Source of the DNA: Massalongia carnosa
Taxonomy: Eukaryota
Direction: 5' to 3'
Assembly (NCBI GenBank): GCA_965645245.1
Contig: OZ287072.1
Location: 1,550,001 to 1,614,000, forward strand
DNA: 64,000 bases
The notes below the pieces were generated by a model. It saw only the letters and a program-made list of their open reading frames with translations. It made no database searches and was not told the DNA's origin. The position numbers and the translations under genes are program-made. This document shows positions 1,964-26,443 of the stretch, in pieces. Each line of letters opens with the position of its first letter. The first letter of the stretch is position 1.

Positions 1964-2277
1964 CTTCTATTGCGTATAGTTATGAATACCGTAGGCAACT
2001 ATTGTTCAATCAGGGTGATAGTTGTTCATTATATCCAAGCTCTCTCGATTGGTTTTTTATTCTTAAATTGAGCTTTAGATCGAGCTCTGTTCTGCTGATG
2101 AGGGGACGCATTAGATGACCATTTATTAAATGCCCTCTTCCTATGACGAGTCGCTGAAGAGGATTTAAGACTGGAGAAAATTACCTCGACGTGCCTCACA
2201 ACTCAGCATTCATCCCCAACGTCACCCTTGCGATAAGCCCCAAGACTACCGAGCTAGTGCGATAAGTGTTTCCCGAG

Positions 2278-2294
2278 ACGCGACGCGACGCGAC
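2278..2294. promoter_or_regulatory. Three tandem ACGCG cores (MCB-like G1/S elements) upstream of SLD2
   Basis: ACGCGACGCGACGCGAC lies about 90-100 bp upstream of the SLD2 ATG; ACGCG is the MBF core. Confidence 0.5.
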
Positions 2295-2379
2295 AGCTAA
2301 TTGAATTCCAGATTGTTCCTAGATCTAAATTCTCCATGTATGGCAGGGACACAGGTACCCAAACAAAGCCTATTGAAAT

Positions 2380-4026
2380 ATGCCTGTTCTCCCACCCCAA
2401 ACCCGAGAAGACTCCATGCAGGAATCCCAGATTCTTCGTCTCGAGCTTAAGGAATGGGAAAGGTCCTTTGCGGCTAGCAATGCTGGGCGTAAGGCCAGTC
2501 GCGAGGATATTAAACAACATCCAGAAATTGGTATACATTCTTCCCTCCCCAATCTCTCCGTTCCCCACCCGTCAACTCCAAACGCTAAAAAAACCGCGAC
2601 ATTCACAGCCGAGAAGTACAAAGTCTACAGCAAACTCCGCGCCGCCTCATCGTCCCAATCTCCAAGCTACTCCATCGCCCCTCCCAAACCCAAACCCAAA
2701 CCCAACAGGCAGTTAACGCACACTCCGCAAAAACTCCCTAAGCAGACCTATTCCCTTCACCCTTCCGCCCTCGACATCTACGATCACCCCCTCTCTGCGC
2801 AAAAAACCCCCACACCCCGTCGCACATTTATAGGCCCCACCCCGCAGAAAGACGGCCGTGTCCTCGGCCTCTTTGATCTGCTTTCCCCTGCCTCGAACCC
2901 CGCTCCCACACCCTCGAAGCAGGCCCGGAACACCCTAAATCTAATCCATTCGAATATCGTGGTCACTCCTTCGAAACGGCTCGCTGATGCTACTGAAGAT
3001 GCACCCTGGGACCATCACAACTATATCCTAAGCGCAAAACGCCTCCAACCAACCTATTCTAGCGCCTTAAATGGCGCTTCCTTTCTCACGCCCTCAAGCC
3101 ACCGTGTAGCCACTGCGGCTCTATCCCAGACCACCCCCAATTCCTCTCGTGGCGGCGTCTCTAAATTAAAATTTGACGACACCCCGGCATTCCTCAGACG
3201 AGACAGCCAGCGCGCACATTCTGGCCAAGAACAAAAAACAAGTCTCGATGGTGAAAATGACGACGCCAATGGCGATTTGCAATGGAGCCCCTTTCCGAAG
3301 GTACGCATGCCTGCTCGACAGCTTGCAGGCAAAGGGCTTAGCGCGCTGGTACGAAACTTGCGTGAGATGGAAGATGAGCGACTAGACGAGGAGTTGGATC
3401 TTCTACACGAACTAGATGGCCCATGCGGTGCCACGGTCCCCAATCCGACAGCGCTATGCCCAAAGTCGAAAAATTTAAACCCCACCCTACGCCCCAGCAC
3501 CGTCTGCGTGGTAGATAGACAAGGCGCCGAAATGCCCCTGGGTCCAGACGGGACCCTTGCTAGCGAAAGCGAAGAGGAAGCTGAGAAAGGACATATGGGG
3601 GGAACGAGGAGGTGGAAGAAGCGCGGGCAGAAGAGGAGCACGAGGATGGTAGTTATGAAGCCTTCGAGGGGGAAGTGGAAGCCGGAGCCGCTATGGGGGG
3701 GCGAGGAACCCGGTGAGGGCGATGGAGACGAGGATGAAGCAGTGCTGGAAACTCAGCCTACGCATGTAGGGGTTGAAGGTGAGGATTTGCTTCTTTATGA
3801 TGACGAAGGGGGAGAGAAAGGTGATGAGAATGTAAAAGGGGAGGAGAAGGAGAAAAAGAAGACAGTTTACACGCTAGAGCAGAAAGCGCCTGCAGAAGGC
3901 GAGCCGCCAGCAAAGCTGAGGAAGAAAAAGAAACTCGCGGCAACGGCCAATGCCAACTTTCGGGCGCTGAAAATCCGGAGTCGGGGCAGTGGAGGAGGGA
4001 AAGGGAGGTTTGGCAGGAGGCGATAA
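2380..4026 (+). CDS. SLD2: DNA replication regulator Sld2/Drc1
   Basis: N-terminal LRLELKEWERSF..GRKASREDIKQHPEI-AEKYKVYSKLR after removing intron 2531..2608. Also IGPTPQKDGRVLGLFDLL, many S/T-P CDK sites, and a C-terminal ANFRALKIR..GRFGRRR. Confidence 0.88.
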   Translation: MPVLPPQTREDSMQESQILRLELKEWERSFAASNAGRKASREDIKQHPEIGIHSSLPNLSVPHPSTPNAKKTATFTAEKYKVYSKLRAASSSQSPSYSIAPPKPKPKPNRQLTHTPQKLPKQTYSLHPSALDIYDHPLSAQKTPTPRRTFIGPTPQKDGRVLGLFDLLSPASNPAPTPSKQARNTLNLIHSNIVVTPSKRLADATEDAPWDHHNYILSAKRLQPTYSSALNGASFLTPSSHRVATAALSQTTPNSSRGGVSKLKFDDTPAFLRRDSQRAHSGQEQKTSLDGENDDANGDLQWSPFPKVRMPARQLAGKGLSALVRNLREMEDERLDEELDLLHELDGPCGATVPNPTALCPKSKNLNPTLRPSTVCVVDRQGAEMPLGPDGTLASESEEEAEKGHMGGTRRWKKRGQKRSTRMVVMKPSRGKWKPEPLWGGEEPGEGDGDEDEAVLETQPTHVGVEGEDLLLYDDEGGEKGDENVKGEEKEKKKTVYTLEQKAPAEGEPPAKLRKKKKLAATANANFRALKIRSRGSGGGKGRFGRRR

Positions 4027-4805
4027 GGATCGCTCCCGGGGAAGTCTCAACGTACGGCGTTACGGAACAGGGGGTGAAGCTACCTACCTACTTTGAGCTG
4101 GCGTGTGCGCTTAGGATTCTGGAACATGAGTATCAAGAGAAAAGTGAAGCTAAATGTTGGATTGACTTGATTTTTGGCTGCCCCTTTTCGAAAGTTGTTT
4201 GCTATACCTAGTCTTTCCCCTTGTGGCTGAAGCTTGGCGTCTGTGACGCTAATATGCATAACTCAGGGAAGCTCCCATGAGCGAAGATCCTCAGGATGGT
4301 GAGAGGAGTTCTGGGTGTTTCTTGTGGGACAGTGTACGAGATGTATGTATATATGAATAATAAATGAAGCATATCGTGAGCTAGAAAGAAAGGTTTTGAT
4401 AGGGAAGTTTTCGGATATATGTAAGGCCGCTTCGTTGAGCCCCTTCTCCCCTAAACTAAGGGTTGGGTGTTGCTAACAAATACTTAGGTAAAGCACAAGC
4501 TTAGAGGTAAAGAGGTATGGTGTAATGCGGAGTTGGCGGTTGGGGAAATTTTTGCTTTATTGAAAGAACGTTTTACGAACCGGAGGAGTGTTTACCGGTT
4601 GTTGTTTTGTTTGTGGATATTGGAAAAGGGGGGTGGGGGTCAAGCTTACGTTTGCTGTTCCGTTCGCCTTGAATTTTTGTTACTGTTTACCCAACGTTGA
4701 ATTTCACCCAGGGTGGTTCTGTGGCGGGGGAGATGCTATGTGTGTTCGATTGAGTGTATGTAACTAAAATCGAAGTCAATAACCCTTGTTTTTCGTCGCT
4801 GCATC

Positions 4806-5846
4806 CTATCCCGGAAAGTACGGGTGTGCGCTTTCGACACGGCGCCGTTTGGGAGATGAATATTGTTTAGGTCGTTGAGAGCTTCTCTTACTGCCAGTCC
4901 GCTTCAGGGACGGTAATCTATCCTGGGAGTCTCGTGCTCGGCTAGCAGGTGTAGAGCTATTGCATTTTTCCTCCTCCGATATCTTGACCTGAGCTTGACC
5001 ATACTGCACATGGCGATCCCAATCCTCTAATAAAACATACGGGCTCCGCAGCCAGGCCCCAAGCTCGTGCAAGAAAAGCCGCGCGTTATCTCGGCCTAGA
5101 AACTCTTGCAGCATCTCCTCAGCCTGCCCGCCAGACCCCTTGAGCTCTACTGACTTCAAGATCGCAACGATATACTCGAGCAGGAACTCAGCGTTGTTGG
5201 CTTTCCGGCGCCGCGTGCCAATAACCTCTTCCTGCTCCTGCTCCTGCTCCTGTTCTTTCTTACTCGTGTAGTAGTCCGGGTTCAAGAACTCGAAGACTTG
5301 CAGCTCGCGCCGTATCCATTTGCGTGCGCGAGAGATGAGCTCTTCGTCTTGCTGCAAGGATTGCAGCGCTAGGTCGCTGAAGCGGGAGAGGCGATTTGTG
5401 CCTACGTGGGAGGAGTACAGCTTGTGACGGTAGATGTGTCGGCGGCGGAGGAGTGCAGCGTCGGAGCTGAGAGATGGGCATGGCCGCGATCGTCGTGGTC
5501 GCCAGTTCGTATGCGTTCGGAGTCCATGGGAGGACGGGACGACTGCTGGCGTGAAAGCTTGTTTCGACGGGTTCAGGGGGACTTTGTATACTGTGAAGTC
5601 TTTACGACTCCGCCAGCCATACTCGACAGCCTCTACCTCAGCCTTACAAAGTGGGCAAGTTGGACTTTCTTGCAGCCAACTAACGAGACAGAGGAAGTCA
5701 AAGCTGGAATGGCGGCATGGAGAGGCGACTGCACGCTCGGAGACGATATCGAGGCAGATAACACATCTGTTCGCTTGCCCAGTTGCCTGATCTTCTTCCG
5801 GTATGTTATGAACTGCTTTTGGTCTAGTTTCTGTCTTTTCTTCCAT
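4806..5846 (-). CDS. C3HC4 RING-finger protein (Topors-like putative E3 ubiquitin ligase)
   Basis: RING motif CVICL..PCRHSSFDFLCLVSWL..CPLCK; conserved fungal C-terminal block (WIRRELQVF, FLHELGAWLRSPY). Confidence 0.85.
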   Translation of the reverse strand: MEEKTETRPKAVHNIPEEDQATGQANRCVICLDIVSERAVASPCRHSSFDFLCLVSWLQESPTCPLCKAEVEAVEYGWRSRKDFTVYKVPLNPSKQAFTPAVVPSSHGLRTHTNWRPRRSRPCPSLSSDAALLRRRHIYRHKLYSSHVGTNRLSRFSDLALQSLQQDEELISRARKWIRRELQVFEFLNPDYYTSKKEQEQEQEQEEVIGTRRRKANNAEFLLEYIVAILKSVELKGSGGQAEEMLQEFLGRDNARLFLHELGAWLRSPYVLLEDWDRHVQYGQAQVKISEEEKCNSSTPASRARDSQDRLPSLKRTGSKRSSQRPKQYSSPKRRRVESAHPYFPG

Positions 5847-16172: not shown

Positions 16173-18270
16173 TTAGCATAGCGGACTCACCACCACCGCA
16201 CCTAGCAACCACGCCGGCCACCAAACACACCACACCACCACCTGCGTCCACAAACCGCTGACCCTCCATCCAAACGCCGCCTCCGCCACCATGGCTCCCA
16301 CGTCGACGCCCCACCATCTACAGCCTGCAATCGCAACCACAGGCGGCGAGAGCAGATGCAGCAACGCGCTTCCAAGGAGCTTCTTTGCCAGTCGAGGCCT
16401 CGGCGTCGCTTCCGAAGAGAGGCCATTGGGGGAGAGAGGCGGGCCGAGGAAGGATAGTGGGGTGGAGAGAAGGCCAACGATGAGGGCGAGAGAGAAATTA
16501 AGGGTGGCGAGGGTAGCAAGGAACATGCCCAGGAGGAGGAGGGAGATACATTTGGCAAGGAGAAGGTGATGAGGGGAGAGGAGATTTAAGCGGGATATTA
16601 GGGAGGAAAAGACATTGGGGAGGAGAAGGTTGGAGAAGATGAAGGCGATGAGGGTAGGATAGAGGGCCTGGAGGAGATGTAAGTAGATGTAGTTATTTGA
16701 AAATTGGAGTAATTTCGCACAACTCACATTGCTGGTGGTGTTGTTGAAGATGTAAAGGGGAATGACGCCAAGGAAGTGTATAAATACGACAAAGGCAGTT
16801 GGAAGGAATAACTGGCGTTCTTTTATTACCAGATCCTGTTTCGGAGCAATAGCTAGCATCCCGTCTTTTTTAACAACATCGACTTCCGGCTTGCTCTTCT
16901 TGCCCGCCAAGCTGATGACAAAGTTGGGAGCTTGTGAGCGCCCGCTTTGAAACCACAACGCTATTGCCATAATGGTGAAGTTGACAGCTACCAGCATGGC
17001 GCTCGGGAGATACGTGCCGATACTGACAAAGCGATTCGCCTGCATGAGCAGGTAGAAAAAGAAACTCTGATGGAAATGCTCCAGTAGATTGTTCAAGCTC
17101 CGAAAAATGCTCTCTACGCATCTGCCCATGGCCATTTCATCCTGCCATCCATTCCCTACTGCTTGAAGAGTAATAGCGTCAACATGATAAGGGATGAAAC
17201 TGCTATGCGGGCCCGATGGATGACCTAGGCCCTGGCTAACCATTCCTCGTAACATAGTCCGTAATCTTTCTCCATAATTATCTCCATGCTTCCACATACG
17301 CTGGAGAGAGACACCGATACCCATCTGTCCGCTAGCAATGGAAACGGCTGTGTTAAAAAGATCGAGGTTAGGAAGCTGTCCATTTATACCGTCGTACACA
17401 ATGTGTAAAGACTCGAATGGATGGTCAAGAGCGTTGTCTATCACGACTACACCTTGTAATGCTCCACTTTTGATGGGAAGGGGCTCAACCAAGGGGTATG
17501 AGTGCTCATTGTGGTAGGCGTCGACCCATGCTTGAGGACCAGCTTTACTATCTGCAGTAATTAATACAATGATATCCTTTGACCAAAGAGACCATCCTAG
17601 CTAAAACGTCAGCTTCCTCAACTACCTCAACTCTCGGAGAGGGACTCGCGGTTAAAATATCTTGCCAACGTCAAAGCTAACGCCACACCACTCTGATTCA
17701 ACTCGCCATCCATGTTAGTCCACGCAGCAACCAGTACGATGGCTTCCGTAGCGTCTCCTCGCGGGGCATGGAGTATCGAGTAAACATTTTCGCCCCGATA
17801 CGTATTACCCCCTGCTTGATACTCGTATTTCTGGCTTGCGGCCCTTAAACCTGCAGACTTGAATATATCACCAAGCTTCACGGTGATCCTATTGAATCAA
17901 GCCATCAACATGAGCCAGTTATCCAGAGATAAAGTCTCCAACGTACTCTTCCTGCTCCTTCCCCGCCAATGCATTAATCTCATACTTATAGGCATTGAAG
18001 ACGTTCTGTTCGCTTCCTCCAAAATATGTGTGCACTTGACCGGGGAGAAGAGCGTTTTCTGAGATATAGGTCTGTCTCGAATACTCATTAAGTGGCAGTA
18101 GAAGAAGCCAGGCAATGCCGATGAGGATGCATATTGCAGAGAGATATGGGGGGGCTTTGAGGAGGCGGGGATCTCTTCGTAGAGCCAAAATGGCCGGGGC
18201 TTCTATAAACGTCAGCGAGTGCTGCGAGTAGCATCTGTTTGAGAAAGTTTTACGCACAGATTAATGCCAT
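16173..18270 (-). CDS. GAA1: GPI transamidase subunit Gaa1, multi-exon
   Basis: RQTYISENALLPGQV, HAPRGDATEAIVLVA, WSKDIIVLI, NGQLPNLDLFN, RSLNNLLEHFHQSFFFYLL and C-terminal TM helices. The first exon (MALI) is inferred. Confidence 0.92.
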
Positions 18271-18751
18271 AGGGAATCCTAACTTGAGGAGTCAGGAGTT
18301 AGTATCAATAAATAGGATGTATTAGGTATTTAGTCACGTAATATTTACAAGTGTAGTATTTATGTAACACCTATCCCCTATTTGGCCATTCAGTTCATCT
18401 TCTTTCCTTCCTCTCAAGCAAAGTAAAATATAAGCCTACCCAAACGAGCCAATCTTAGGAAGCATTCAAGCAGCTCCGTCTGTCTTCCACGCGCAGATGC
18501 ATCATAAGGGAGAATCAGATTGAGATTTAGATCTCAGTAGTTTACAGAAACTTAAGGGTAGTTTATAGTTCTCTAGGTAGAGAAAGACTAAAGGGGGGGG
18601 TTAGGGGCGGGGGCCCGAAACGTTGGCTTTAATAGGTGAAATGAAGTCCAAATGGGTTGTTCGTCTGATACATCAATCGAAGAACCGTATAAGTGGCGTA
18701 ACCCTGTACGGGTGTAATAATATCCCTTTCATCACTTGATCTTTAAAAGGG

Positions 18752-19959
18752 CTAAGGACCAAGTCTCTGCGTCGAACCCAAATAAGTCGGCACCTGGCCC
18801 TCTCCTGCCCCTGGCACTGACGAGGTGGGCAAAACGCCGTACCGACCGTACGTCTTCTGATCTATCGATACATAATGTGGGAGACGACCGAGCAGGTTCA
18901 GTTTTCCTTCGATCCAGCGAAGAATTTTTTCCGGAGGGGCGAGAATTTTGAGGTAACCAAGACCATCTAGGGATATATGAGCAAAAAATGGGATTTGAAG
19001 CCACAGAGGAAGAATGTCATAATGGGGAATTTGAGTGAGTCTGATTATAGGAGCAGAATTAGAAGAGGTTAAACGAACATATATAGCCGATGCCGACACT
19101 GCAGAGGTGGCCTAAGAAGGATGTGTTCGGGACTAGCGCGGTGACGAAGAGAAGGACCACGAGGGGGGTGGTCCATGTCGGTATTTTGTATGTGCTTATC
19201 CTATGAAAATTATTAAGCATCTTTTCACCTGTGTAGCATTACTTGGCTCTGACGAAGGAGAAATTACGCGAAATAGGGGTTCGCTCGAAAAGCCTTGATA
19301 CCCTCTATACCTAGCAGAACAAAAACCCAGACACTGCATAGTATGTTAAACTCGCTAAAAGTAGATATGGCGGGTTTTGGTATTACCTTGCCCCTGAGAC
19401 AGTAGCGTTACCGCGTAAAGCTCCTCGCTCAATGAGAAGGTATGCGGCAGCTGGAAGAGTGGAAAGAGCTAAAATACAGTATAGATTAGTAAGTTTAAAT
19501 TTCACGAAGGCGAGATGAAAGACTAAAGAACACATACGTCCGGCAAACATTGCTCCCGTCAACAAGGTACCGTGTTCGGCTTCGAATCTTTCCAATAGTG
19601 GCAGAAGGGCTATAGCATTGAGAAGGGCATGAATAAAGCCCAGGTGTATAAGGGGATAGGTATTGGTTCGATACACTATGCCAGAATAATAAATCAGCAA
19701 TCTATGCCTATAGCCACCCAGCCGCAAAGACCGTGGAGCCTTCTCAGAACAGAACGCTGACACAAGCGATGTTCTTACTGGTGCCCAAGCTGACCTCCTG
19801 CGGTATCAGCGCTCCCCATTGCACAACGTTCCATGCTGACTGCAGCCCTAATATCCAAAACAAGACGATCAACAAGAGTACAATACGGGTAAACAAAGGA
19901 AGTCGAAAGATGTAGGATCGCAAACGTGCAGGATTGAAGGAGGGCAGCGTTGGTGCCAT
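18752..19959 (-). CDS. RBD2: Rhomboid-family intramembrane protease Rbd2, multi-exon
   Basis: RLPLFTR, YRTNTYPLIHLGFIHALLN, catalytic GAS (spliced VSGAS-VWVF) and SFLGHLC; C-terminus GSTQRLGP*. Confidence 0.88.
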
Positions 19960-20235
19960 CTGGATGCAGGACTCGGGGGAAGCTGAATTGACTTGATTAT
20001 GGCAGTGTCATTTAGAACTTTTGGGTTGGCGTTAATGAAGTAGTGTCATATCGGCCTTCCAAGACTGCCTTCATTTTGCGGGGAGACAAATACTTCTGTA
20101 CGTTTACAACAACTAGATCCGGAGTTAAGCCGCACATGGTTCCTACATGCGCCACGCGACGGCTCTACCCGGTAGTTCTGATTACGAGTAAAGGGCATTG
20201 AAGAGGCAACTACTCTGTATTTTTTAGGTCTTTAT

Positions 20236-20274
20236 CCCTCTCGCTGTCATTCTAGCACCCCCCCCCCAAGCTAA
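20236..20274 (+). repeat. Left-coordinate terminal inverted repeat of piggyBac (39 bp, C10 run)
   Basis: Matches the reverse complement of 22371..22406 except for homopolymer length. Confidence 0.95.
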
Positions 20275-20379
20275 ACCATTGTTGGTTAGAAAGCGCTAAA
20301 CCTTAAAATTTTGACCAATCAATGTTATTCCTATTCACAAGAAGTTCATTTTCATATGTACGGAGTATCAGATACCTAT

Positions 20380-22230
20380 TTACTCGTCCCCTATCATATG
20401 AATAGCTTCCCAACAGCTGGCTTTCTTACAGCAGGGCTTGATTGGATTGCATCCTCCACAAGCCCATATAGTCTGAGCACCCCTTCGCCTTCTTTTTCGC
20501 CCATCGACACTTATTTCAGCCAGTGGCTCTCCCTTCCGCTTTGAAGGTCGTTTTTTCTCGGCGTTACATTGTACACATCTTTTTCTGCCTTCAAGACGAA
20601 CGTAATGATGAATGGGAGATGGTACTAAATCATCAATCTCGGTATTGATGCTTATCTTTGATGAGCCGGGCCTGATGCCCGCTTGATTTGATATCAGTTC
20701 AAGAGCAATCCGACGAAGAAATTCAGAACGAGTAAATTTTTTCTCCTCGGAATCGAAAGAGTTCAGCGAGTAAAGTTTATAGGCATTCAATCCGGCTGCA
20801 TCTAAAATAAAAATGAACAAAGGCCACCAGTAACGATCCGTTCGACGATTGTATGAGTAAATCGCTCGTTGCTAAGCGTCTCCATCCGATCCCCCCATAT
20901 GAAGATTATATTCTTTGATTGGGGCTGGTATCGGTAATCCTAAGGGCCGTTGAACCTCTTGATTGAGCAAGGGAATGGAGTGAGCCAGAGTTGATAGGAA
21001 ATACGGTACAATAGGTTGAAGAGAGGTCTCGGGAATTCCATATCTCTTGTGCGGATTTATATAGTGCATTTCGTACAAGTCCTGAGGAGAATGACCGGTG
21101 GTCATGTACTGCACAACATTATTATCCACCCAGCCCATACAAAGCACCTCATCGTCAACCACCATATGGGCCTGAAGACCCCAGTCTTTTCCTTTTGAAG
21201 TGACGTCCCGTATGGCCAACAATTCTTCTGGAAAGCCCGAGCCCTTTTTAGCAGTTCCACTGGCAGCTATTCCGATTGATCGAAGTGCCTCGAATAATTT
21301 CGTACTAGTAAAGAAATTATCACAGAAAAGATGATAATTCAGTGAGGATAGAAGTTCTTTACATAACTGAATCACTAGTAAAGCACTAGGAGTTAGTTTA
21401 TCTTTTGGCAAAAATCCCAAGTGTCTGACGGTTTTCAATTCACTTATTCTGCTACTTTTCGAGGCAAACATAAATGGCAACAGATAATTATCCTGACAGA
21501 GACTGTAGATTTTGAATCCTTTATGGGCACTTTTTGTAGTAATCTGCAAGGTATGTCGAGAACGGCCCTTGAATAACACCAGCTGTTCATCTATAGATAT
21601 CATACTTTCTGGTCTGCAATGTTTCAATGAAGTCTTTCGGAAATCAGTAGCCAACGGTTCCAGTTTCTTCCACCAATCAGGTCCTTGACCAAGTCCGATA
21701 GGGTCAGTCCGTCCATTATTGATTTTCAAAAATCGTTTGATTTGTTGAAATCGACCAAGCAACATCGCGGACAGAATAGGCATGATGACTGGTTTGTCAG
21801 GACGTTGATTCCAATAATCCTCTGTAGCATATAGATGATCGAGTCCCATAAGAATTATTATGCCCAAAAAAACCTCAATTTCCGAGTCAGTAGTGTCAGT
21901 CCAAACCCGATGATTGTTCTCCTTCTCCTTTTCCATGTAGTTATATGCTTTGATATTGGTATGATTTGCGATAATACGACAATGCTGCCTTGTTATAAAT
22001 AACCGAAATAATCCCAAAGGATTTCGAGAATCGTTTTCAACGAGCGGAACAAAAGGCCTGTTTCAACCCGAATGGGGGTATATTTTGAGGAAATAGGGGG
22101 AAGGTCAATTAAAATATCTCGAACACTTCTTTTGCGATTTATTTATGTTGCTTCGCTGAAATGGGAGATTTGTCTGATACACTCGGGATTTCTTCTTCAT
22201 TGAGCGTCAGACTTATAATATCAATTCCGA
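20380..22230 (-). pseudogene. piggyBac DDD transposase, disrupted by an in-frame TAG at 20872..20874 and by frameshifts upstream of about 22060
   Basis: SIDEQL, FCDNFFTS and YNLHMGGSD catalytic motifs, then RYWWPLF and a C-terminal Cys-rich domain (CVQC..CGGC..CC..CWEAIH). ORFs 22017..20872 and 20820..20380 are in the same frame. The 5' boundary is approximate. Confidence 0.9.
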
Positions 22231-22370
22231 AGCTAGAAGAATAGTAATTTATGTGATTTATTTTGATTGAATGACCGAATAGTATTCTTTGAAAAGTAAA
22301 CAAACGCGCAAACACTCAAGAGAAAACTAATGTTCTGATGACTCATCGGTGCGGAAGCTAGTCCAATAGA

Positions 22371-22406
22371 TTAGCTTGGGGGGGTGCTAGAATGACAGCG
22401 AGAGGG
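22371..22406 (-). repeat. Right-coordinate terminal inverted repeat of piggyBac (36 bp, G7 run)
   Basis: TTAGCTTGGGGGGGTGCTAGAATGACAGCGAGAGGG read directly. Confidence 0.95.
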
Positions 22407-22529
22407 ATAAGTAAATAACGTGTGCTAGTGTTTTACGTCAATAGCCTACATAATCCCAACCCTCAATTTACATCTATACTCTGTGCCATCACCGCAAAAG
22501 GCAATTTCACCAAGGAACCAAGTTAGGCC

Positions 22530-23526
22530 ATGGATGATGAACTGCTGTCAGTAATGTTCTTTCGCTTGTCCGGTTTAAGAAACTGAGAACCTTGAAGAGA
22601 ACTGTCAAGTAGCACTGTTGCCGCTCTCCAAGAGTTTTATACGGAGAGAGATTTCCAGGAAAAGCGATTTGAGGATCTCAAAGCGCAGACCGAGCAAGAG
22701 CAAGGCGCCACCCACGGACCGCTATCGATGGATACCTTCTCGGAAGATTGGAATGCTAGTCAGTTCTGGGTACATTCTCCCTCCTAGACTAGGTAGGAGC
22801 ATTCTGATGTGCTCAGTACAGCAATGAAACAGCTACATTGCTAGCCAGAGAGCTTCTTGAAGGTACAACGGGACAAAGCCGGATTGCCATTATCTCTGCT
22901 CCTAGCGTTTTCATCCAGCTCAAAAACCTACTTGTTTGTCAATTGCTCTAGTCTTGAGGTTCCAAGGCATTGACCAATCACTCAAGGCTTCTGGGTTGCA
23001 TGCGACTCCTCATATCAGCCTCTTGGAATTCGACAAACGCTTCAATGTTTTTAAAGAGTTTGTTCATTACGATTTTCACTACCCATTGAAGCTTCCTCGT
23101 GAGTGTGATATAGATACTGATCTAGGACTTTGCCATAATTAACTCTCAGTTTCAGTTGAACTAAAAGGGAGTTTTGATCGAATTATCTGTGATCCCCCGT
23201 TTCTCAGTTCCGACTGCCAAACCAAAGGCGAGTCATATTGAATGTACATAAATGTTCTACTTCGCTGATACAACACAGCCGCAATGACTGCGCGTTGGCT
23301 GTCCAAGGTCCACCAACCACAATCCGAAGACGATAATATGCGAGTCATTGTATGTACAGGAGAACGGATGGAAGAGCTCATCCTCAAGCTGTATTGCAGG
23401 ATCCATACAACTACCTTTGAACCCAAGCACGCACAAGACCGACTTAGCAACGATTTTCGATGTTATGCCAATTATCAGAGCGAAGCATGGACCTGGACGA
23501 GCACAAAAGCCAGCGGGGATTCTTGA
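22530..23526 (+). CDS. EFM5: Protein-lysine N-methyltransferase Efm5 (N6AMT2/EEF1AKMT1 family), 6 exons
   Basis: Spliced: AALQEFY, FSEDWNASQFW-YSNETA, IAIISAPSVF, LLEFDKRF, IICDPPFLS, VIVCTGERM, LSNDFRCYANY. Confidence 0.88.
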
Positions 23527-24076
23527 GAGCCCGATTAAGTCCCTGGAATCACTAGGCCACGATTATTGGTATTAGTCACACCGACTGTGACTGGAAACCC
23601 CTACTTTGCCCCGAGCGCGTTCAACATTAGAGTAAATCATGCGACCATTTGCATGCCGCTGATGTTCGGATCCTTCCGGTTCAGTATGACTCAATCTATA
23701 ACGAACATGGGGGATTTTTCCTCTATCCGGGTTGGCAAAGTCATCTCATTTGCTGGGTGAAATTTCGGTGCGAGTTTTGAGCAAAGGGAAAGGTTTTTTT
23801 TTTCATTGCCAGTGAGTATCAAGTATCGAGTGACTCATTTCTGCCTACGTGTTTGATCAAGGATATCGGATGTGATTGCCCTGTCAAGCCCGCCGGTTAG
23901 AGTTGCCTTTTGATTTATTCCTTCTCCATTTCCATTTCCCACTTCCCAACACAGAGTTTATCGATACTCAAAAGCCGTGACCCTGTGCTCGGAAGATCGG
24001 CTTTAGCAGGAAGCGTAAAACCAACTAGTTGTTGTTACAGTCTTAGCTGTATTTAGCGGATCATGTGTATCTGTGG

Positions 24077-24120
24077 TGCAAGTTATGTGCAAGTTATGTG
24101 CAAGTTATGTGCAAGTTATG
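24077..24120. repeat. 11-bp tandem repeat (TGCAAGTTATG) x4
   Basis: Read directly from the sequence. Confidence 0.93.
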
Positions 24121-24487
24121 TACGAGTTGTGTTGAGTTCTCGACCTTTGTGCTGTGGTGACGCATGTTGCATCATTCCCTTGGGTTTCCCTATCCTAGCA
24201 GATGGCAATCAACGGTTTGCTGACATATTCATCCGACTTACCTCACTCCCAGAAAGGCACTTTACCTACCTCATCCTCTTAGTGATGATGCCGGCACCAT
24301 ATAATATTAATACACAGCTTCACCCCCCTTGGTCGCTGTTCCAACGCATGTGTTTTTTCCCGCCTTAGAGGTCTTCGACATTTCTACCTCTTAAAGCATT
24401 TTTGCTCTCTGCAAGCTTTTTGTACTGGTGGCCAGGAAACACTATCTTTATTCAAACCATAGAAACAAAGCCAATTCTCCAACTCCC

Positions 24488-26443
24488 ATGGTTCGCAACT
24501 CAAGCTTCTTACTTTATACAGCCTTGTCGATGCTCAAGGTGACTGCTGCTCACGTACATGGGGCTCACTTTTCTAGTCTTGGGGGTATCAATGCTTCGGG
24601 ACCGAGCAAAACCAGTCCACCCTGGAACTCCACGTCAGCTACCGTGGTGAGCTCTTCATTGGCTTCCGCCTCGAATTATTATGCATATCATGGAGGAACA
24701 GGTCTTCTGATAGCCCATGTAATCCTTATGGTAATCGCATGGATTTTAGTGCTCCCATTAGGTAAGTTGTGATTTAGGTGTGTCTGCTGAAGAACTCGTG
24801 TCTAATGAGTACATTTCAATCAGGAGTTATGCTAAGTCTTGCCCAATCGCGACTTACGCTGGTCATACGACTGTCTTTTCTAGGGTTGAATGGCGCGGGT
24901 ATTTGGCTCGGAAGGATATATAACAGTAATACGCCAGATCTCTATGTGAACAACGCGCATCACACAATGGGTTGGGCCGTTACGTGGATCACCCTTGCGC
25001 AGTGTATCATTACAGCTATCAGACCTTATGCTGACCTGAGAAGGGGTCCCCACACCAACTTGGAAGAGCAAGCGGCATTGATTCCTGTGTCGGCCGAAGC
25101 CATAGCTCAGCATCAGCCAAAGTTTATAAATCGCATGTCGGAACACTGTAGGTACTCTCACGATAGTGGCCATGGCACAGAGCCGCAGTCGTCGAGGAGC
25201 CTTTCCACATCTTCGCTGCACAGTGAAGAGGACGAGCTTCTTAAGCCTGTGGAAACACAACGGGTCAACGCAGATGTAGGGTATCAGGAAAAGCCAAGAA
25301 TCATTCCGCTATCACGAGTTAATCGAATCCTATTCTGCATGGCCAGCGTGCTCTCGAGTCGACTCTTGATAGTCTTGATTTTTTTCCACGATGCAGTTGA
25401 TCGCTTGATCTTCCTGCTTGGCTTCATCGTAATTGTCTCGGGTATCGTCGTTTATGCGGGTGTATTTGTGGGTCCTCCTCCTGAAATTCGAAATCAAGAC
25501 TGACTTCTCACAGCGAAGTAGCAACGTCCTAAATGGGCTTGCACACACAGTCAAAGGCGGCATATTTTTTTGGTACGGTTTACTGACACTGGGACGTTGG
25601 ATGGGCTGCTTTGTTGAATATGGCTGGGCGTGGAATGTGCGACCTCCCGTGGGTGTTATCAGCTCCCGTAAAGCTGCGATGCCTTCTGCGGAGTTTGTAG
25701 AATCATTTGTAATATTTTTGTATGGGGCCACAAATGTGTTTCTCGAACACTTGACTGCATGGGGAGGGGCATGGACTGCGCGGGATCTTGAACACGTTTC
25801 AATTTCTATAATGTTTTTTGGCGGCGGCCTGGTAAGTGCTCGAATTTCCCACGAAGATATCTGGCTTACGAATCCCTAGTGCGGCATGCTCCTTGAATCG
25901 GAACGAATTCGTGATCTCCTCAACACGACGATCCTATCCCTCTACTCTAACAACAGGCTCCCCGCCCCCATCGACCGCTGGGACCCCCCCAAAACTTATC
26001 CTTTCTCGACCAACCCCTTCCCGGCCCTGATCATCTTGCTTCTAGGCCTCCTCATGAGCAGCCACCACCAATCCTCCCATGTCTCCACCATGATCCATCA
26101 GCAATGGGGCACGCTTCTTGTCGGCTTTGCCCTCGCTCGCGCCGTCACCTACCTCGTCACGTACGTCTCGCCCCCGACGTCGTTCCTGCCTTCGCGTCCC
26201 CCAACGGAGATCGTGGCGTCCTTTTGCTTGATCGCCGGTGGGCTAGTGTTCATGGCCAGCAACAAGGATACGGTGGCGGCGATGGAGCGGCACGGGTTGG
26301 ACGCCACGTTTAGCTTCACGGTGACGATGGGGTTCACGGCCTTTCTGATGGCATGGACCATCGTCGTGCTTGCGGTTAAGGGGTGGGCGGTTCGCCGAGA
26401 ACACGGGCGGGTCTTCCACGAGCCTTGTTGTGGCGTGGCGTAA
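24488..26443 (+). CDS. Ytp1/DUF2427-family integral membrane protein, 4 exons
   Basis: Signal peptide, AHVILMVIAWILVLPLG, TPDLYVNNAHH, LAHTVKGGIFFWYG, NVFLEHL, DLEHVSISIMFFGGGL, MSSHHQ, RPPTEIVASFCL. Confidence 0.83.

Follow-up and report, generated by a model that had tools for sequence, protein, structure and literature searches.

Can a transposon that has the transposase core and the termini of the piggyBac superfamily integrate at a sequence other than TTAA, and with a duplication other than 4 bp? A TTAA target together with a 4-bp duplication has been treated as defining for the superfamily and is built into discovery pipelines. The question is raised by an element of a lichen-associated fungus, situated in a 64,000-nt stretch of Massalongia carnosa DNA (contig OZ287072.1 of assembly GCA_965645245.1, forward-strand positions 1,550,001–1,614,000; hereafter the window, whose own numbering we use). 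The element proper (20236–22406) is 2,171 bp long with CCC...GGG ends, and its occupied site reads TTAT/CCC...GGG/ATAA, where a slash marks the boundary between flank and terminus. The left junction is GGTCT-TTAT/CCCTCT (TTAT at 20232–20235) and the right one is AGAGGG/ATAA-GTAAA (ATAA at 22407–22410); TTAT and ATAA are reverse complements, not direct repeats. Both 4-mers are included in a perfect 33-nt inverted repeat (20232–20264 and 22378–22410); a second pair of arms is found further inside (21 nt, 90%, 20261–20281 and 22364–22384), and the whole inverted repeat, of ∼50 nt, spans a C/G run of variable length. The 23-nt tip of the terminal inverted repeat (TIR), with up to 3 mismatches allowed, occurs twice in the 64-kb window, against 0.00 occurrences expected from 100 shuffles. 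These letters bear out the original prediction, made from the window sequence alone, which had given the same two ends, TTAT/CCCTCT and AGAGGG/ATAA, with reverse-complementary 4-mers and TIRs free of substitutions. The two ends are composed of the following features:

20232, no strand: T, ordinary flank (position −4 is variable among the ends surveyed)
20233, no strand: T, putative left outer base of a TATA target (kept in the empty allele; −3 is T in 55 of 61 ends)
20234–20235, no strand: AT, probable left copy of the duplication (empty-site joint 20233 to 22407; AT at the terminus in 58 of 61 ends)
20236–20264, plus strand: left TIR, starting with CCC, perfect 29-nt core, imperfect on to ∼20281 (repeat search and junction letters)
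22378–22406, minus strand: right TIR, with GGG at its end (repeat search and junction letters)
22407–22408, no strand: AT, probable right copy of the duplication (empty-site joint; survey of ends)
22409, no strand: A, putative right outer base of the TATA target (empty allele; survey of ends)
22410, no strand: A, ordinary flank

Evidence on the mode of insertion comes from an allele without the element. Five public sequencing runs (X1–X5) contain the window stretch or part of it; X1 is a lichen metagenome from a study other than that of X2–X4, while X2 and X4 represent organism A of study P2. One 48,702-nt contig of X1, with a depth of 25 equal to the flank depth, covers 17800–20233 and 22407–24800 contiguously; it joins 20233 to 22407 (19350 to 19351 in the record), leaving out 2,173 nt, with 2 letters that could belong to either side. 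Over 4.8 kb this contig has 15 further differences from the window and therefore comes from another strain. The flank contigs of X2 and X4 run into the TIRs without mismatch, thus representing the occupied allele. The empty allele reads TCT-TTATAA-GTA, with 6 nt between GGTCT and GTAAA, and the occupied allele is equal to the empty allele plus the 2,171-bp element plus AT. The occupied site has thus gained the element and 2 bp, in a TATA core, and the insertion is young enough for strains to differ in carrying it. Either a site that was never occupied or a seamless excision would account for the empty allele.

The original prediction had put forward two models for the flanks. One of them, a 2-bp duplication of AT with the empty site ...TCTTTATAAGT..., is matched by the X1 joint to the base. 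The other assumed a family targeting TTAT/ATAA, in which the donor overhang was fixed at one end and the target sequence at the other; the contrary case, set out beforehand, was an ordinary copy with a mutated TTAA (empty allele GGTCT-TTAA-GTAAA). Both of these are excluded because they need 4 nt between GGTCT and GTAAA, where 6 are seen.

We then have to ask whether the flanks of this copy are peculiar to it. A profile of six relatives (A2) was compared with metagenome contigs, which gave 157 confirmed relatives; the best 80 loci, with 26–42% identity, were kept. Element ends were taken from inverted-repeat searches bracketing the transposase matches, followed by BLAST of the TIR tips. In the 80 loci and the window 86 ends were detected, and merging the same site across samples left 61 non-redundant ends, 59 from relatives and 2 from the window. 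An exact scan of the metagenome contigs with the 22-nt TIR tip of the window element gave no match.

TAT stands beside the terminus in 54 of the 61 ends and AT in 58, while no end (0/61) has a TTAA flank. Position −3 is T in 55 ends; position −4 is variable (C in 22, T in 19, G in 12 and A in 8). Among the 24 complete elements, AT lies directly beside both termini in every case (24/24), and 22 of them have the outer T and A at their two ends. Four loci (L014, L069, L076 and L080) had suggested too many palindromic flanks beyond TAT and ATA, a surplus that vanished on counting: reverse-complementarity beyond −3 was observed in 5–9 of the 24 elements per position, with about one in four expected by chance. 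The long TIRs of the relatives, up to 79 nt, almost all have the form TAT/CCC...GGG/ATA; most begin with CCC and some with CTC, CGC, TCC or TGT. For the window family itself, a contig of X2 links two further copies in the arrangement GGG-ATA-(19 nt)-TAT-CCC, so that TAT or ATA is found at 4 of 4 family ends, with T, T, C and A at −4. Departures from the pattern include L048, which reads c-AT/CCCC...GGGG/AT-c, with AT as a direct repeat and outer bases other than T and A (the coding region of L048 matches P0132, a protein of 653 aa, with 98% identity), and the end of L031, which reads a-AT (AAT).

To judge from these ends, the conserved target core is T/AT/A and not the hexamer TTATAA; the outer T and A appear to behave as a target preference, with the bases next to the terminus being the most constant. 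Of the palindromic hexamer proposed originally, the duplicated central AT holds, and the outermost T and A do not, as the composition at −4 indicates. The broader proposal of a non-canonical target specificity is upheld by the ends of related elements, and the TATA flank signature belongs to a broad fungal lineage and is not peculiar to this copy. We also observed one family (L056 at 2109–4809, L035 at ∼5061 and L061 at ∼6336) in which the tips read TAT/TGTCC... in place of CCC, with TAT and ATA flanks kept.

The enzyme encoded by the window copy belongs to the piggyBac superfamily. Its gene is located as follows:

20380–22315, minus strand: damaged gene for a transposase of piggyBac type, sharing 96% identity with P0002, an intact protein of 645 aa

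The minus-strand frame consists of 396 and 163 codons split by a single in-frame TAG at 20872–20874. The 396-aa piece matches Pfam PF13843 (DDE_Tnp_1_7, the piggyBac core) with E-value 3.3e-43 and 148.8 bits, the cutoff being 22.4; the classification as a piggyBac-type transposon, made originally from sequence letters, is in agreement with this match, and the Pfam scan of the window transposase gave the piggyBac domain alone and no Tc1/mariner domain. The closest protein in the public collection is P0002, whose 96% identity extends over the entire window copy; it is the head of a cluster (90% identity) whose 56 members come from Mb-scale contigs, and it covers positions 1–349 of the 349 of PF13843 (E-value 4.8e-52). 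In phmmer searches P0002 matched piggyBac of Trichoplusia ni (6x67, E-value 5.9e-17) and piggyBat (9c0f). The catalytic residues D268, D346 and D447 of the T. ni enzyme align to D243, D333 and D478 of P0002, which thus has the DDD triad, and the motifs SIDEQ, CDNFF and GGSD are found in the window copy as well. The protein tail, C-x2-C ... C-x2-C ... CC ... C-x4-H, is kept among the relatives, with no Pfam family assigned to the C-terminal 162 aa.

The premature TAG is CAG in the remaining copies (20874 A>G in every other run contig). The window copy also has 1-nt deletions near 22060 and 22141, where most other copies have an extra T; these deletions put the N-terminal part out of frame. The two Met that are candidate starts in P0002 are replaced by Val and Leu (region 22313–22315). 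These features characterize the window element as a dead copy of a multi-copy cut-and-paste family with intact members; such intact copies could mobilise it in trans because its ends are perfect.

What could distinguish this lineage from the TTAA enzymes at the level of residues? T. ni piggyBac fixes the TTAA hairpin and the TTAA target in one and the same conformation by means of its omega loop (R275, Y283 and K290), of N440, which reads A−2, and of a pocket that accepts the methyl group of T−3; A3T pairs with T0T and stacks on Y283, as described in the available text of the structural paper (PMC7351741). No gap is needed to align this lineage with T. ni piggyBac over the segment bounded by the first catalytic Asp and the PNKP motif. 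We read the omega-loop residues from tblastn alignments of 81 sources (a motif regular expression had matched just 9 of 80 loci). The equivalent of Tyr283 is absent in all 81: we found K in 37, R in 26, N in 9, C in 3, Q in 2, M in 2, S in 1 and a stop in 1. The R275 equivalent is mostly S, T or K, while Y439/N440 is kept in 52 of 52 sources. Both solved TTAA enzymes, T. ni piggyBac and piggyBat, have R275 and Y283. TTAA/CCC and nTAT/CCC have in common T−3 and A−2, bases whose readers are conserved; they differ at −4 and −1, bases whose interplay involves Y283. We regard the association of residue loss with target change, as it appears in these alignments, as a correlation and not as a demonstration.

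P0002 has 8,081 relatives among public proteins at E-value ≤1e-3 and 141 at ≤1e-30. The loop is covered in 148 of the proteins fetched; 137 have no aromatic residue there, and the 11 that do are the most distant ones, with 22–29% identity. A maximum-likelihood tree was built from proteins covering residues 140–500 at <90% identity (n = 62). A branch with a Shimodaira–Hasegawa-like approximate likelihood ratio test (SH-aLRT) value of 100 parts 52 rows, 51 of them non-aromatic at the Tyr283 position, from 10 rows, 9 of them aromatic; the tenth, P0031, has a Tyr two residues further on. By best hit, the 24 complete elements with TAT...ATA flanks fall to both subgroups of the 52 rows (3 and 21) and none falls to the 10. 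Three relatives, P0019, P0020 and P0047, were flagged in the tree as unlike the rest, their composition being skewed to I, K, N, F and S; repeat-induced point mutation of the copies encoding them could explain such a skew.

We consider it probable that the lineage integrates at T/AT/A with duplication of the central AT only, which implies a 2-bp and not a 4-bp stagger. By analogy with T. ni piggyBac, the transposase would nick at ...GGG-3′, the 3′-OH would attack the opposite strand 2 nt into the flank to form a short hairpin, and hairpin opening would leave 5′-AT flaps on the element and 5′-AT overhangs on the donor. Because AT is self-complementary, the donor could reseal seamlessly to TATA, and strand transfer with a 2-bp stagger would leave a gapped target to which the AT flaps could anneal. 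We lean slightly towards the wider proposition that a widespread fungal piggyBac lineage has reset its offset from 4 to 2 bp and its target from TTAA to TATA, keeping the seamless chemistry by way of the self-complementary AT, alongside the loss of Tyr283 and Arg275.

Three readings lead to the same occupied junctions: a duplication of AT, a duplication of TA, and a blunt insertion into TA^TA. We prefer the duplication of AT because cleavage then stays at the conserved C/G terminus of piggyBac-like elements, the stagger shifts by 2 rather than 4, and the self-complementary overhang, the basis of seamless piggyBac excision, is preserved. If the insertion were blunt, the true element would be T-CCC...GGG-A (20235–22407), put into TA^TA with a 0-bp stagger and no duplication, and each AT would consist of one host base and one element base. 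Occupied and empty sequences would be identical to those of a 2-bp duplication and all 61 ends would fit, L048 included; moreover, cut-and-paste elements without duplications do exist, e.g. the Spy group (PMC4122938, in the part of the text available). Blunt insertion would, however, move cleavage off the conserved CCC/GGG terminus, whose first cytosine is given in the accessible part of a survey of piggyBac-like elements as the one well-conserved TIR position (PMC5381638), it would alter the stagger by 4 and not 2, and it would forfeit the self-complementary overhang on which seamless excision depends. We rate it as unlikely.

A TA duplication of the Tc1/mariner kind gives the same element, T-CCC...GGG-A, and takes TCT-TTAA-GTA as the original site, with X1 as a footprint retaining both TA copies. 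It is encouraged by Ti_tr1 of the truffle Tuber indicum, which has a DDE_Tnp_1_7 transposase and 52-bp TIRs, lacks TTAA and whose target site duplications are given as TA (PMC3864998, available text), and every TAT/CCC end can be parsed as TA followed by T-CCC. However, neither TA of the X1 empty site, taken as the target, gives the occupied junctions, and therefore X1 would have to be an imprecise excision product and not the ancestral allele. The duplications at L048 would be unequal, CA and TC; exceptions to T at −3 (L031 and both L048 ends) outnumber exceptions to AT at −2 and −1; and the Pfam result described above points to piggyBac only. This explanation appears to us quite improbable. 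Finally, the element could be an ordinary TTAA piggyBac in which both TTAA copies have mutated, or a rare off-target insertion at TTAT/ATAA fixed by mismatch repair; in the survey just cited, the odd flanks of five single-copy elements were ascribed to mutation, as far as its available text goes (PMC5381638). Against it stand the 6-nt spacing of the empty allele, the flank counts (TAT in 54 of the 61 ends, TTAA in none) and the two further ends of the window family, which read TAT and ATA; we give this explanation hardly any credence. What was left of our confidence after these four readings was assigned to explanations we have not thought of.

Several considerations weigh against the duplication of AT and the 2-bp stagger. 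As the invariant AT is palindromic, a 2-bp duplication and a blunt insertion of T...A would read alike in sequence. According to the accessible part of the structural study, the piggyBac dimer places its active sites such that the offset has to be 4 bp (PMC7351741), and a 2-bp offset therefore needs a different geometry. In the related Tuber element, the duplication was read as TA and not AT (PMC3864998, available text). The 2-bp gain is observed at a single locus with one empty site; BLAST of 250-nt flanks of the 24 related elements (23 loci) found no empty site, just the same insertions in other samples. The hairpin, overhang and excision steps are drawn by analogy only. Some of the ends call for care: L005, a degenerate copy with a truncated right end, reads TAG; L031 with AAT is an exception among the 61; the left end of L050 had its register assigned manually; and for termini with CTC, CGC, TCC or TGT tips the boundaries were set by the author's priority rule. 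At L029, two ends of another element read TATA/CCC and TACA/CCC. The tree comes from a quick maximum-likelihood search, midpoint-rooted, with 62 of 195 proteins.

At L029 (2223–5893), a member of the L076 family is nested in another TIR-bearing element, itself ∼500 bp long, with ends TATA/CCCGG... and ...GGG/TGTA. No second copy of this outer element was found; it is possibly a relative with another register or with a 4-bp TATA duplication.

Further observations concern the copies of the window family. The C/G run inside each TIR (20258–20266 and 22377–22384) differs in length among copies, with 1–2 letters omitted or 2–3 inserted. Some run contigs omit 114–208 nt within the element (20504–20672, 21686–21895, 21829–21944 and 22010–22141); these are probably internally deleted, non-autonomous copies. 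Where the window copy departs from most other copies, the change is in many cases G>A or C>T. Element depth in X1 is ∼20 times the flank depth, a figure that is not a copy number. In X5 (organism B), element depth is ∼200 and parts of the flanks are present at a depth of ∼5–9, some without differences, a ratio resembling that of X1; X5 coverage leaves out the insertion site. The X5 sample probably includes a small amount of this fungus or of a very close one; a transfer to another species is the less probable reading.

How does the lineage compare with known systems? With canonical piggyBac (T. ni IFP2 and piggyBat; structures 6x67/6x68 and 9c0f) it shares PF13843, the DDD triad, CCC...GGG termini, a single-open-reading-frame element of 2–3 kb, T−3 and A−2 in the flank and, putatively, a Cys-rich region at the C-terminus. 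The differences are TTAA with a 4-bp duplication in canonical piggyBac against TATA with a 2-bp net gain here, R275 and Y283 present in the former and replaced in the latter, and TIRs that are longer in this lineage (∼30–50 nt, up to the 79 nt noted for relatives). Tc1/mariner elements likewise have a 2-bp duplication in an AT-only target; however, their transposase belongs to an unrelated fold family and the duplication is TA. Excision of Tc1/mariner elements leaves footprints. PiggyMac, which excises the internal eliminated sequences of Paramecium, is a piggyBac-derived enzyme acting at TA-containing boundaries, one TA at either end, with precise junctions and a single TA left; unlike the elements described here, it is a domesticated excisase without integration, with the boundary consensus TAYAGYNR (PMC6143343, available text).

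The closest precedent is Ti_tr1 (Belfiori et al. 2013, PLoS One), a 2,351-bp strain-specific insertion with a 566-aa transposase, whose classification was left ‘unclear’ by its authors (PMC3864998, available text). It resembles the window element in being fungal (Ti_tr1 is from Pezizomycotina), in having PF13843, TIRs of ∼50 bp and a non-TTAA 2-bp duplication, and in being polymorphic among strains; it differs in the duplication given, TA and not AT, a comparison made from the published description. The accessible text of that account deals with a single copy and contains no target consensus, lineage-wide survey or link to transposase residues. Ti_tr1 is probably a member of the same lineage described in another register. 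At L014 (2466–4816), the inverted repeat together with 5 flank bases per side amounts to 2,351 bp, the length of the Ti_tr1 insertion; this may be a coincidence (the L014 element proper is 2,341 bp).

In the 2017 survey, covering 157 piggyBac-like elements, the five single-copy elements had TTAT, ATAT, ATAA, ATAG and TTTT flanks, and a Paracoccidioides element had a 50-bp TIR (PMC5381638, available text). The 2020 structure paper, in the part available (PMC7351741), treats TTAA as general, as does a 2026 review, and a mining study of 2025 discarded elements lacking a TTAACC-like motif (PMC13461360). No account of a piggyBac lineage with a TATA target and a 2-bp duplication turned up in the full-text literature outside Repbase Reports and subscription journals, and the 2013 Tuber paper and the 2017 survey were the only partial precedents found there for a 2-bp, TATA or TA piggyBac duplication. 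Prior art is thus partial: a piggyBac with a 2-bp non-TTAA duplication has a single-element precedent, from 2013, which was not taken up by the piggyBac literature.

In the window, the element is inserted between two divergently oriented genes. Fragments of both, lying outside the element, give its context:

19383–19805, minus strand: fragment of the flanking gene with a rhomboid domain, called RBD2 originally (PF01694, E-value 1.7e-6)
22808–22951, plus strand: fragment of the flanking gene for a probable N6-adenine methyltransferase, called EFM5 originally (PF10237, E-value 6e-8)

The domains of the two fragments are consistent with the gene names proposed originally. The insertion would be ∼125 bp upstream of a candidate start ATG at 22531, which is followed by a GTAATG splice-donor-like motif. 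One could speculate that a TATA-seeking element has hit a promoter TATA element here (22407–22535).

A lineage with the piggyBac core, CCC/GGG ends and a 2-bp gain at TATA would mean that offset and target choice can evolve within one fold, with the omega loop indicated as the place of the change. Its members would provide natural enzymes for testing how hairpin geometry is coupled to target choice and, if the proposed mode of integration is true, natural seamless vectors with a different site preference, not tied to TTAA. Such elements would be invisible to mining pipelines demanding TTAA; for annotation, this suggests a search of fungal piggyBac elements with TAT...ATA flanks. For the host genomes, if the reading is true, insertion would be directed into TATA-box-like promoter sequences, and these elements would land preferentially in host promoters.

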